Program-made: the position numbers and the translations under genes
Virus record (IMG/VR): IMGVR_UViG_2731957841_000003
Reading direction: 5' to 3' (one strand)
From: a virus
Lineage: Duplodnaviria > Heunggongvirae > Uroviricota > Caudoviricetes
Length of the DNA: 29,158 bases
In this document: positions 19,567 to 27,606 of the stretch, piece after piece
Layout: each line of letters opens with the position of its first letter
How positions within the stretch are numbered: position 1 is the stretch's first letter
The notes under the pieces: generated by a model
Told to the model about the DNA's origin: nothing
The model's input: the letters and a program-made list of their open reading frames with translations, nothing else
The model's database searches: none

Positions 19567-20568
19567 TTAGTAATCTGCGTGTTTCGCACTTTTCAGAAAT
19601 GCTTTCATATTTTCATTAGGTCGCTCAATTTCGAAGTTACTTCCATATAACTCTTGTAATTTTGGCCATAACTTACTTAATAACCCTCTCCTGCGATAAA
19701 ATGGATGTATCCAAACGGTAGATAGGTACGGAGAATTTGCATTTGAATTGTTTATTGTGACCAGCCCAACTAAACATTGTCGATAACCACTATTATCCAT
19801 TGATTGTATTTCTTCGACGAATGGATACGCGATTACATCAGTCCAACCATGATCGGTTGTATCCCATTGCATTCCGTCATGACATTCCTTCGACTGATAG
19901 CGGCGTAAAGCTACACACGCGAGCTTTTGCCAATCTGGAGAATTAATTGTGATCTCTTCATCGTATGACGCGCCTATTGGAGCGGGTATTGGTCTGATTA
20001 ATCCAGCATGGCATTCATCATAGAACTTCATGTTTCCCTCAGAAACGTTGTGTACGTTGGGTTGCTCCATGTGTGCGCCATTCAAAAATAGCTCTGATAG
20101 TAGTGTATCTACACTGTAATCTTTATTGATTATTGTCGGCTTAGAGTTTTTCTTATTAAGGCCGCGAGTAACGATTTTTTGATCAATGTTAACAACATGG
20201 AATAATCCGTCGGGGAGGCTAGCGAACCACGATGGGGCATCGGACCAGAATAGCATGCCTTTTGTACTTCTTAAGAGTTTAATTAAGTTAATACAAGCTT
20301 CTTCACTAGTCTTGCCGTTGATGCGAAGTATGTTAGGACTAAAGTAATATTCATCCATATCAGGGAATGCAGCTTCGCAAAACTCCTGTACATAATTTAG
20401 CACCTGGATTCTACAGAGATCATCATAGCTGGTAATAACTAAGGGGGTATCTTCATTACTATTATGATTATCAATAATGCAATCTATAGCGAGACTTACT
20501 GCTTTGCGTATCACTTCAGTTGAATCTAACGACTCTAAAAATTTTGTCTTTCGTGTGCGAATATCCAT
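19567..20568 (-). CDS. Hypothetical 333-aa protein with C-terminal GNAT-like acetyltransferase motif (second gene of AT-rich cargo cassette)
   Basis: C-terminal ...LSTVWIHPFYRRRGLLSKLWPKLQEL... resembles GNAT motif A (beta4-alpha3, R-x-x-G); N-terminal ~250 aa unassigned; AT-rich codon usage; 15-bp gap to upstream gene. Confidence 0.5.
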   Translation of the reverse strand: MDIRTRKTKFLESLDSTEVIRKAVSLAIDCIIDNHNSNEDTPLVITSYDDLCRIQVLNYVQEFCEAAFPDMDEYYFSPNILRINGKTSEEACINLIKLLRSTKGMLFWSDAPSWFASLPDGLFHVVNIDQKIVTRGLNKKNSKPTIINKDYSVDTLLSELFLNGAHMEQPNVHNVSEGNMKFYDECHAGLIRPIPAPIGASYDEEITINSPDWQKLACVALRRYQSKECHDGMQWDTTDHGWTDVIAYPFVEEIQSMDNSGYRQCLVGLVTINNSNANSPYLSTVWIHPFYRRRGLLSKLWPKLQELYGSNFEIERPNENMKAFLKSAKHADY

Positions 20569-20583
20569 GTATGACCTGCGCTA

Positions 20584-21606
20584 TTAAAATTCATGAATGA
20601 ACGGTTTGTCATCTGGTTGCAAAATGGTGGTTTTATTCGTTGCTACATTTAAACTGTTGTAGAGCATAATTGCCAGGTTCGATGCATTTTCAATCAGCGT
20701 TTCAAGATCCTGGTCTGTAATCACTACGAGGTTCCCTTCTTTATCCTTTCCACCACGATGCACTAAGTGATTTCGATTGAGGGTTGCCAATTCAATAGCT
20801 TCTATCGGACAGTCTTTTTGTACTTTTATATCGAATGTAGCTTCATAGCGGTCGATTACCTTTTTAGTGCTATGCCAGCTTGCACTGATCAAGTGTTCCT
20901 TGATTGACCTGATTAGCTCTCCCCTAATTTTCTCGATGGGTTCACCCTTGAAAGGCAACGCAGCAATATCTTTGCTTACTTTAAATTCAGTCTTACCTTT
21001 TTCTATACAATTGGCTATGTAGACATCATCTTTCTCTATAGAATTAATGAATAGCTCAACATAAAGCGTTTCCAAAGCTGTAATAACATTCGTGTAGAGC
21101 AAACTAAGCAAGTGGTTTTTTTGCTGTTGTTCAGTTTTATCTTTTGCAAGTTTTTTTATTTTATCGATATTATCAATGAATTTTAAATACGGATTACCGG
21201 AAGACGTTACAGCGTCGTAGATATCATCATCGTACCAATCATCTATATTATTTGAGTTTCCAGACCAGTCAAAACATTGTGTTTGTAATTCATCTACTAA
21301 TTCCTCAATATACTCAGATTTAACATATTGACCGAAGATGGATTGTAGTTCTTCGCTCGCATCATACGGCCCGCCATATATGTAAGCATAGCCACCTTCT
21401 CTACTTTCATACGGACAAGCATTTGCCGGATCTTCAAAGTTTTCAAAGAACCAGTTTTTCATTACTTCGAGTTGATCTTTTTTGCTTATGTATTTTAAAG
21501 ATTTTAGTGGAACTTTCTTTCCATTAACCTCGAAAACAATTTTCACGATGTAACGCTCCCTTGTATCAATTGCGCAACTATTATACCACAGCGAAATACA
21601 GGGCAT
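20584..21606 (-). CDS. Hypothetical 340-aa protein with C-terminal R-x4-H (HEPN-like) motif (first gene of AT-rich cargo cassette)
   Basis: ORF listed as 363 aa; preferred start is the ATG at 21606 (MPCISLWYNS...) preceded by AAGGAGG. C-terminal ...ELATLNRNHLVHRGG... carries R-x4-H; strongly AT-rich. Confidence 0.5.
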   Translation of the reverse strand: MPCISLWYNSCAIDTRERYIVKIVFEVNGKKVPLKSLKYISKKDQLEVMKNWFFENFEDPANACPYESREGGYAYIYGGPYDASEELQSIFGQYVKSEYIEELVDELQTQCFDWSGNSNNIDDWYDDDIYDAVTSSGNPYLKFIDNIDKIKKLAKDKTEQQQKNHLLSLLYTNVITALETLYVELFINSIEKDDVYIANCIEKGKTEFKVSKDIAALPFKGEPIEKIRGELIRSIKEHLISASWHSTKKVIDRYEATFDIKVQKDCPIEAIELATLNRNHLVHRGGKDKEGNLVVITDQDLETLIENASNLAIMLYNSLNVATNKTTILQPDDKPFIHEF

Positions 21607-21744
21607 AACCTGCCTCCTTAAACTAACATACCATGAGCCAGCAATGTCCGCTATTGGCACAAAGCGGACAACCACGCTAGCTCTCCCCTGTGCCAGAAAA
21701 ATGTCAATTTACATATGAACTAATGCTCTTTGATCTAGTAACGT

Positions 21745-23713: not shown

Positions 23714-24475
23714 TTACCCCCTGAAGCCTGGCGGGATCGCACTATCCGGTAACGAGACGGTGTTAACCTGTCGGAGTAACGTCTCAGGTCGAACACCTTT
23801 CGGCGCGAACAAGCCCTGGTATTCATTGGCGATGCTGTGTCGAATCACCTGCTCAGGTGAAAAACCCTGCTGGCGGAATTTTTCCAGCTCCCGTATCGCC
23901 CCGTTAGCGCCCTGCTCCGTTCGAATCGGTTTTCGCAATGCCTGGCGAAATTCAACCCACTCACGCCAAAGCGAGACAGAAATCCAGTTCGGCAAAGCAA
24001 TATCCAGAGGGTCAAACTTTTTGACACCTCGATTCCCCCGGGGGGGATTTAGGGGGGGATCTGTTTTTAGATCTTTATCTGTATCTTTATTAGTTGCCTT
24101 TGTGTTGACATCATGTTCAAACACCACTTCAACATCTGTTTGAACACCTGTTAAATTTCTCTCTTGTTTTGTTTGAACATCTGCTTCCTTTCTGCTTCTT
24201 CTGGCCTGAACAGATGCTTTTCCTGCGGCTGATTTTTTGGTTAATTTTTCCCTGACTGATGCCAGATCTTCCTCAATCCGAAGATGCACCCATTCCTCGC
24301 CGTTATCGCAAAAAAACTCCTGCAAGGATGGTTCAACATCAGCCCATCGCTCGTTAGTCAGACGGGCAATTTTTGCCAGCCTGTTTTTAGGTATTGGCTT
24401 TCCTGTTTGCCAGTAATTGAACATCAGCAACAAATACGCACCATGCTCCTCTGCTGAAGGGTAATCGTGTTTCAC
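23714..24475 (-). pseudogene. ydaU: DUF1376 replication protein (YdaU-like), 5'-truncated at a deletion junction
   Basis: ORF begins with GTG at 24475 ((M)[24 protein letters not shown]...) and an in-frame stop lies 2 codons upstream, so the usual N-terminal ~25-30 residues of this family are absent. K-12 YdaU is 285 aa by memory versus 253 here. Confidence 0.6.
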
Positions 24476-24476
24476 A

Positions 24477-26373
24477 CATCACTCGCACGGCTTCCGGTGC
24501 TAATGCTGGCGGCGGAAACCTCACCGATCGCGGCGAAGGTTTCGTACACGATCTGACGTCACTGGCGCGGGACGTAGCCACTGGCGTACTGGCCCGTTCA
24601 ATGGATCTGGACATCTATAACCTTCATCCGGCACACGCTAAACGCATTGAGGAAATTATCGCTGAAAATAAACCGCCCTTTTCTGTTTTCCGCGACAAAT
24701 TCATCACCATGCCTGGCGGGCTGGATTATTCCCGCGCCATCGTGGTTGCGTCCGTAAAAGAAGCACCAATTGGGATCGAGGTCATCCCCGCGCACGTCAC
24801 TGAATATCTGAACAAAGTACTGACTGAAACCGATCATGCCAACCCTGATCCGGAAATCGTGGATATTGCCTGCGGTCGCTCCTCTGCCCCGATGCCGCAG
24901 CGAGTAACAGAAGAAGGAAAACAGGATGATGAAGAAAAACCGCAACCATCTGGAACAACGGCAGTTGAACAGGGAGAGGCTGAAACAATGGAACCGGACG
25001 CAACTGAACATCATCAGGACACGCAGCCGCTGGATGCTCAGTCACAGGTAAATTCTGTTGATGCGAAATATCAGGAACTGCGGGCAGAACTCCATGAAGC
25101 CCGGAAAAACATTCCATCAAAAAATCCTGTCGATGCCGATAAATTGCTTGCTGCATCACGTGGTGAATTTGTTGACGGAATTAGCGACCCGAACGATCCG
25201 AAATGGGTAAAGGGGATCCAGACTCGCGATTGTGTGTACCAGAACCAGCCAGAAACGGAAAAAACCAGCCCGGATATGAATCAACCTGAGCCAGTAGTGC
25301 AACAGGAACCGGAAATAGCCTGCAATGCCTGCGGCCAGACTGGCGGGGATAACTGCCCTGACTGTGGTGCGGTGATGGGCGACGCAACATACCAGGAAAC
25401 ATTCGATGAAGAGAGTCAGGTTGAAGCTAAGGAAAATGATCCGGAGGAAATGGAAGGCGCTGAACATCCGCACAATGAGAATGCTGGCAGCGATCCGCAT
25501 CGCGATTGCAGTGATGAAACTGGCGAAGTCGCAGATCCCGTAATCGTAGAAGACATAGAGCCAGGTATTTATTACGGAATTTCGAATGAGAATTACCACG
25601 CGGGTCCCGGTGTCAGTAAGTCTCAGCTCGATGACATTGCTGATACTCCGGCACTGTATTTGTGGCGTAAAAATGCCCCCGTGGACACCACAAAGACAAA
25701 AACGCTCGATTTAGGAACCGCTTTCCACTGCCGGGTACTTGAGCCGGAAGAATTCAGTAACCGCTTTATCGTAGCACCTGAATTTAACCGCCGGACAAAC
25801 TCCGGAAAAGAAGAAGAGAAAGCGTTTCTGAGGGAATGCGCAAGCACAGGAAAAACGGTTATCACTGCCGAAGAAGGCCGGAAAATTGAACTCATGTATC
25901 AGAGCGTTATGGCTTTGCCGCTGGGGCAATGGCTTGTTGAAAGCGCCGGACACGCTGAATCATCAATTTACTGGGAAGATCCTGAAACAGCAATTTTGTG
26001 TCGGTGCCGTCCGGACAAAATTATCCCTGAATTTCACTGGATCATGGACGTGAAAACTACGGCGGATATTCAACGATTCAAAACCGCTTATTACGACTAC
26101 CGCTATCACGTTCAGGATGCATTCTACAGTGACGGTTATGAAGCACAGTTTGGAGTGCAGCCAACTTTCGTTTTTCTGGTTGCCAGCACAACTATTGAAT
26201 GCGGACGTTATCCGGTTGAAATTTTCATGATGGGCGAAGAAGCAAAACTGGCAGGTCAGCTGGAATATCACCGCAATCTGCGAACCCTGGCTGACTGCCT
26301 CAATACCGATGAATGGCCAGCTATTAAGACGTTATCACTGCCCCGCTGGGCTAAGGAATATGCAAATGACTAA
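24477..26373 (+). pseudogene. recE: Exonuclease VIII RecE, 5'-truncated (C-terminal ~2/3 retained; first in-frame ATG at 24601)
   Basis: 590-aa ORF from the 24601 ATG whose frame is open upstream to 24421; C-terminal nuclease region; TAA overlaps the recT ATG (ATGACTAA). K-12 RecE is 866 aa by memory. Confidence 0.75.
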
Positions 26374-27175
26374 GCAACCACCAATCGCAAAAGCCGATCT
26401 GCAAAAAACTCAGGGAAACCGTGCACCAGCAGCAATTAAAAATAACGACGTGATTAGTTTTATTAACCAGCCATCAATGAAAGAGCAACTGGCAGCAGCT
26501 CTTCCACGCCATATGACGGCTGAACGTATGATCCGTATCGCCACCACAGAAATTCGTAAAGTTCCGGCGTTAGGAAACTGTGACACTATGAGTTTTGTCA
26601 GTGCAATCGTACAGTGTTCACAGCTCGGACTTGAGCCCGGTAGCGCCCTCGGTCATGCATATTTACTGCCTTTTGGTAATAAAAACGAAAAGAGCGGTAA
26701 AAAAAACGTTCAGCTAATCATTGGCTATCGCGGCATGATTGATCTGGCTCGCCGTTCAGGTCAAATCGCCAGCCTGTCAGCCCGTGTTGTCCGTGAAGGT
26801 GACGAGTTTAATTTCGAATTTGGCCTTGATGAAAAGTTAATACACCGCCCAGGAGAAAACGAAGATGCCCCTGTTACCCACGTCTATGCTGTCGCAAGAC
26901 TGAAAGACGGAGGTACTCAGTTTGAAGTTATGACGCGCAAACAGATTGAGCTGGTGCGCAGCCAGAGTAAAGCTGGTAATAACGGGCCGTGGGTAACTCA
27001 CTGGGAAGAAATGGCAAAGAAAACGGCTATTCGTCGCCTGTTCAAATATCTGCCCGTATCAATTGAGATCCAGCGTGCAGTATCAATGGATGAAAAGGAA
27101 CCACTGACAATCGATCCTGCAGATTCCTCTGTATTAACCGGGGAATACAGTGTAATCGATAATTCAGAGGAATAA
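26366..27175 (+). CDS. recT: Recombinase RecT (single-strand annealing protein)
   Basis: 269 aa from [27 protein letters not shown]...; matches my recollection of K-12 RecT; canonical position after recE. Confidence 0.9.
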
Positions 27176-27230
27176 TTCAGCCTGGCGGTGTAATGCACCG
27201 CCAACTTGAAATATTTTTATGAGAAAAATT

Positions 27231-27380
27231 ATGAGATATGACAATGTTAAACCATGTCCATTTTGTGGTTGTCCATCAGTAACGGTGAAAGCCATTTCAG
27301 GATATTACCGAGCGAAGTGTAACGGATGCGAATCCCGAACCGGTTATGGTGGAAGTGAAAAAGAAGCACTCGAACGATGA
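27231..27380 (+). pseudogene. ralR: Restriction-alleviation protein/type I toxin RalR (Lar) with in-frame TGA at codon 50
   Basis: MRYDNVKPCPFCGCPSVTVKAISGYYRAKCNGCESRTGYGGSEKEALER then TGA; the same frame continues NKRTTGNNNGGVHV to a TAA at 27423..27425 overlapping the ydaC ATG, giving the 64 aa I recall for Lar. Confidence 0.6.
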
Positions 27381-27417
27381 AATAAACGAACCACTGGAAA
27401 TAATAATGGAGGTGTTC

Positions 27418-27606
27418 ATGTATAAAATTACCGCCACTATTGAAAAGGAAGGTGGCACTCCTACTAACTGGACAAGATATTCAAAATCTAAACTAACGAA
27501 ATCAGAATGCGAAAAAATGCTCTCAGGTAAAAAAGAAGCAGGCGTTTCCAGAGAGCAGAAAGTAAAACTGATAAATTTTAATTGCGAGAAACTTCAGTCC
27601 TCGTGA
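27418..27606 (+). CDS. ydaC: Rac-type small protein YdaC
   Basis: 62-aa ORF MYKITATIEKEGGTPTNWTRYSKSKL... with SD GGAGG at 5-nt spacing; position between ralR and xis. Confidence 0.7.
   Translation: MYKITATIEKEGGTPTNWTRYSKSKLTKSECEKMLSGKKEAGVSREQKVKLINFNCEKLQSS

Follow-up and report, generated by a model that had tools for sequence, protein, structure and literature searches.

RalR, identical with the Lar protein of King and Murray 1995, belongs to the Lar family (PF14354, TIGR03655), in which a CPFCG...C..C zinc ribbon is followed by a helix carrying an invariant C-terminal W-N-x-R motif. [quoted passage not shown] Decayed chromosomal type I toxins are represented in E. coli K-12 by inactive copies of hok (PMC4041452).

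The window described here, meaning the whole stretch of 29,158 nucleotides of viral DNA that was analysed, contains the left arm of a Rac-type prophage with recE (5'-truncated here), recT, ralR, ydaC, xisR and intR. The locus and the order recT-ralR-ydaC-xisR-intR beside ttcA are shared with the RalR/RalA system of K-12, and the same gene order, beside ttcA, is found in related genomes. In comparison to K-12, the first 49 residues of RalR are identical, a full-length RalA is present and the 16-nt pairing site is unchanged; K-12 ralR, however, has TGG at codon 50 and encodes 64 residues, whereas the window has TGA and encodes 49, without WNKR and the tail that follows. The K-12 ralR stop overlaps the ydaC start, but the premature stop of the allele described here (W50*) does not. 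With the Lar family at large the product shares the zinc ribbon and subsequent helix, and exceeds both curated cut-offs, but it is missing the W-N-x-R motif. The hok copies offer a further parallel, in that a toxin gene appears here likewise to be disabled by a simple mutation with its antitoxin RNA left in place. The hok genes carry insertions or rearrangements, whereas a single nonsense codon common to many strains is found here, in a resident prophage, and the inactivity is predicted. The features referred to below are as follows.

26366..27175, plus strand: recT, the upstream neighbour, in the same block as the TGA allele
27231..27380, plus strand: ralR (lar) W50* allele, 49 codons and TGA, with zinc ribbon C9, C12, C30 and C33 retained
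27353..27368, plus strand: 16-nt RalA target in ralR, codons 41-46, intact and upstream of the stop
27378..27380, plus strand: premature TGA at codon 50, TGG (Trp50) in K-12, variant base A at 27380
27381..27425, plus strand: untranslated remnant of the ralR frame, 14 codons (NKRTTGNNNGGVHV) and TAA, holding the conserved N51 and R53 and a variable tail
27418..27606, plus strand: ydaC/DUF1187 (K-12 rcbA homologue), 62 codons, Pfam PF06688 at 132 bits, also annotated by RefSeq on identical DNA
27424..27602, minus strand: full-length antitoxin small RNA RalA, antisense to ydaC, Rfam RF02694
27525..27540, minus strand: RalA segment of 16 nt that pairs with ralR, minus-strand sequence TGCTTCTTTTTTACCT

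Direct reading and translation place the ralR ATG at 27231-27233, and the translated frame runs as MRYDNVKPCPFCGCPSVTVKAISGYYRAKCNGCESRTGYGGSEKEALER up to the TGA and as NKRTTGNNNGGVHV between the TGA and the TAA at 27423-27425 that closes the old frame. That frame overlaps ydaC, whose ATG is at 27418-27420, by 8 nt (ATGTATAA). In an alignment of the ralR region that took in K-12 DH1 and strain L73, the coding sequence differs from that of DH1 at just two positions. At 27375 a C replaces A and the change is synonymous (CGA versus AGA, both Arg49); at 27380 an A replaces G, giving TGA in place of TGG, so that a single G-to-A transition makes W50*. An earlier note on this DNA had named the gene ralR (lar) of a Rac-type prophage, which is right on the evidence of the translation, the RefSeq annotation of identical DNA and the K-12 alignment. 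Its coordinates and 64-codon reference frame also proved correct on direct reading, translation and alignment with K-12 DH1. The same alignment shows TGG at codon 50 in K-12 and confirms the note's proposal that one TGG-to-TGA change accounts for the stop, and the overlap it described between the terminal TAA and the ydaC start is evident from direct reading. We consider it probable that W50* is a natural nonsense allele of single origin that has spread with the surrounding block, and that its product is inactive or strongly weakened.

The effect of the stop on the protein was assessed against family profiles. The stop lowers the Pfam PF14354 score by about 15 bits, from 53.5 for the restored form to 39 for the 49-residue form, whose match spans only positions 2-52 of the 58 in the profile. 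With the NCBIfam RalR equivalog NF007260 as reference, the short form scores 126.9 bits over profile positions 1-49 of 64, above the cut-off of 113, and the restored 64-residue form scores 166 bits. A word-indexed protein search reached close relatives only; family-wide conservation was taken from an exhaustive profile search, which returned 3,611 representatives of the Lar family, and was measured on 77 diverse single-domain members having 30-77% identity with RalR. Ten columns are invariant in all 77: C9, P10, F11, C12, G13, C30, C33, W50, N51 and R53. The four cysteines of the zinc ribbon (CPFCG ... C..C) are present in the truncated product, but the stop at codon 50 removes three of the ten invariant residues, with W50 replaced by the stop itself and N51 and R53 left untranslated. 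All 77 members extend at least as far as the Trp, and even the shortest continues for a single residue beyond R53.

An AlphaFold model (mean pLDDT 77.7) comprises strands at residues 17-22 and 25-30 and a helix at 43-52, whose last turn contains W50; the tail at 54-64 is modelled with low confidence. A PDB sequence search gave no meaningful match, with two weak hits to a chitin-binding protein, and a Foldseek search with the model returned generic zinc ribbons only, none at an E-value of 0.001 or better, so that no nuclease fold can be assigned. Toxicity is lost when residues 43-46 are changed (Guo et al. 2014, PMC4041452), which indicates that the C-terminal helix matters. Translation of the W50* allele would terminate after Arg49, and the product would keep its four-cysteine zinc ribbon and lose the C-terminal helix's final turn, and with it the invariant W-N-x-R. 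Judged by conservation, both its DNase toxicity and its activity in restriction alleviation are most likely lost or strongly reduced. The suggestion of the earlier note that truncation may inactivate RalR is thus plausible, and is supported by the family-wide invariance of W50, N51 and R53. A literature search on the truncated allele found no experiment on the 49-residue form.

It seems unlikely that the 49-residue zinc-ribbon protein is instead a working short isoform, functional as a toxin, in restriction alleviation or in some other role. Retention of all four cysteines and passage of both the Pfam and the NCBIfam thresholds would agree with such a protein, but it would have to function without three residues found in 77 of 77 relatives, with no natural member to set a precedent for ending before the Trp, and without an intact C-terminal helix, which is required for toxicity (PMC4041452). 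The allele reaches an appreciable frequency in several lineages and occurs in prophages with full structural modules, and a neutral product, or one still of use, would be compatible with a frequent allele in otherwise complete-looking prophages; the frequency is, however, sufficiently explained if the allele hitch-hikes with a spreading block.

Leakiness of the stop provides a second alternative. Of the stop codons, UGA is the leakiest in E. coli, with tRNA-Trp as its natural misreader; release factor 2 is present in its efficient form in most non-K-12 strains. Near-cognate reading by tRNA-Trp would rebuild the exact 64-residue RalR at no more than about 1%, making the allele an attenuated toxin gene and not a null, and the frame past the stop is indeed open and unchanged. 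Such basal readthrough would be general to UGA and not peculiar to this site. We regard this explanation as improbable, given the efficient release factor 2 of most non-K-12 strains and the lack of any stimulatory structure after the stop or of an Rfam recoding element, and because an intact downstream frame is equally to be expected of a young allele, and of a frame that overlaps the ribosome-binding site and start of ydaC. For 27370-27440 the predicted fold does not exceed shuffled sequence in stability (z = 0.62), and RalA was the sole hit of an Rfam scan that admitted E-values up to 1. Selenocysteine insertion or structure-driven readthrough was rejected on the same two grounds. Little credence is given to the related idea that W50* acts as a dimmer switch, holding toxin and restriction alleviation at about 1/100 of normal and so tolerable for wide spread of the block, or that the 49-residue ribbon has a separate activity.

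The preferred reading, a nonsense allele with an inactive or strongly weakened product, leaves the RNA component of the system to be accounted for. RalA matches RF02694 over model positions 1-179 of 179, scoring 225.1 bits where the gathering score is 170. Its target in ralR is the 16-nt site defined by Guo et al. 2014 (PMC4041452), which is the same as in K-12 and ends 10 nt ahead of the TGA. Pairing between 27353-27368 and 27525-27540 extends over 15 of the 16 positions, including one G-U pair, and the last 11 are contiguous and perfect, as in K-12. With a full-length RalA and an intact target upstream of the TGA, the toxin-antitoxin module retains its RNA component unaltered. Persistence of both might be explained by the position of RalA antisense to ydaC, and by there having been too little time for either to decay.

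The frequency of the allele was estimated with an allele-specific search, using a 55-mer centred on the variant base such that each 28-nt seed word necessarily includes that base. The TGA form was found in 310 of 5,426 complete E. coli genomes, each 100% identical over the 55 nt, and the same kind of search found the TGG form in 1,310 of the 5,426; both counts are lower bounds, as divergent copies do not seed. Codons 51-59 are unchanged in all 310 hits, with zero variation within the 55-mer, and thus no decay after the stop is seen in the codons covered. The wider 501-nt ralR region is matched in 1,922 genomes, many of them 100% identical throughout, and three deposited phage records (vB_EcoS-666R9, -673R7 and -613R10) are likewise 100% identical across it, two of them annotating ralR as an endodeoxyribonuclease toxin. 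The exact 49-residue protein is present on at least 1000 contigs, from several species according to one source and from Enterobacteriaceae according to another. Among the TGA carriers are strains labelled O26, O103, O111 and O157:H7, together with human, canine, feline and wastewater isolates. An error in sequencing or assembly at the TGA, or a mutation private to one isolate, has negligible probability in view of the 310 independent complete genomes that match the 55-mer centred on A without a mismatch, the many genomes identical over 501 nt, the three phage records and the contigs.

RefSeq names the short gene ralR (WP_001443846.1, 150 nt, 49 residues) and gives it no pseudogene label; it is listed as an ordinary ralR because its 126.9 bits exceed the NCBIfam equivalog cut-off. 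W50* is a common natural variant already catalogued in sequence databases. The rarity implied by the earlier note is not supported, given the 310 genomes, three phage records and contigs that share the allele, and reference alleles that end at this codon, which the note had named as evidence against its reading, do exist in the form of the 49-residue RalR of RefSeq. About 1 in 6 of the E. coli genomes with this ralR region carries a version that is probably unable to make active toxin, and automated annotation calls this version RalR without comment. Codon 50 is therefore worth checking before toxin-antitoxin content, fosfomycin-related phenotypes or restriction alleviation are deduced from annotation.

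The direction of the change can be deduced from relatives. Orthologues from Salmonella and Citrobacter retain RWN(K/R)R, and the Trp is invariant in the 77 distant relatives; the Trp is therefore ancestral, and TGA as the ancestral state is ruled out. A TGG haplotype that equals the 55-mer of the window apart from the variant base is present in 123 genomes. Among the TGA haplotypes, recT through ydaC is identical except at 26774 and at 26731, the latter a difference private to O157:H7 F7349; their other differences fall in xisR/intR, numbering 12 in this window and 43 in strain E2865. Over the 2,794 nt from recT to intR, the TGA strains ECOCN22, AR_0015, O157:H7 F7349 and EC09 differ by 0-1 nt. 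Their chromosomal flanks (ttcA..zntB) are identical in ECOCN22 and AR_0015, but differ at 38-82 nt over about 3,190 in all other pairs of these four. EC09 lies only 2 nt from K-12 in the flank, versus 60 nt in the prophage segment.

A near-identical recT-ralR-ydaC block set within differing chromosomal flanks fits one origin, on the TGG haplotype of the 123 genomes, with horizontal spread and recombination afterwards. In the proposed sequence of events, one G-to-A transition in the Trp codon would most likely have arisen once, on the haplotype with CGA at codon 49, and would then have been carried among E. coli lineages within the conserved block by phage transfer or recombination. A rare 49-residue variant with N5D (P0003) could mean a second origin, but a later substitution or recombination is the simpler explanation. 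W50* is most likely a toxin knockout that spread along with its prophage block, and it offers a handy marker by which horizontal transfer of the Rac-type left arm can be followed.

Several further observations concern ydaC and the immediate surroundings of ralR. The gene has its own GGAGG at 27409-27413. At 27604 the window has T, which gives the TGA that ends ydaC, where K-12 has A (AGA) and a 69-codon rcbA; strain L73 shares the T, and the K-12 extension of rcbA consequently looks derived. Upstream of its start, the ydaC frame stays open as far as an ATG at 27346, and the resulting 86-codon ORF (27346-27606, plus strand) overlaps the 3' end of ralR; in this frame the G-to-A change substitutes Glu for Gly. 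The same upstream frame is open in a K-12-like sequence (P0047), and the ORF is probably incidental. Between recT and ralR, at 27184-27202, a 7-bp GC-rich hairpin (GGCGGTG, a 5-nt loop, CACCGCC) is found with no T run after it; strain L73 has a different sequence there.

RalR-YdaC fusion proteins are encoded in some E. coli genomes (P0040, P0043). They consist of RalR residues 1-45 or 1-46 and an internal part of YdaC, joined at short GAAAAAGAAG-like repeats whose counterparts in the window are 27353-27368 and 27525-27540. This arrangement suggests that the fusions arose by deletion between direct repeats, the same ones that make up the RalA pairing site.

The remainder of the prophage left arm shows other departures from its relatives. 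Similarity to Rac recE starts at 24455, corresponding to about codon 228 of the 866-codon gene (junction region 23968-24601), and a minus-strand DUF1376 replication-type gene adjoins the truncated recE. Relative to the Rac-type prophage of O157:H7 F7349, the window is without the 5' part of recE, a racC-like gene, ydaE, kilR, sieB and ydaF, and also without the repressor and cro-like genes and ydaT. From these missing genes and the DUF1376 gene abutting recE, the prophage in the window is seen to lack an immunity region, and the normal early promoter of recE-recT-ralR has probably been lost. Further upstream, at 19567-21675 on the minus strand, are ORFs of 333 and 363 codons with weak Pfam hints only (GNAT; HEPN/RES N-terminal domain). 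The corresponding site in O157:H7 F7349 is occupied by genes for a cytosine methyltransferase, an O-methyltransferase and an ATP-binding protein, and NACHT, SIR2 and ATP-dependent nuclease genes are annotated inside the matched prophage region of other genomes. The segment looks like variable cargo or a defence hotspot.
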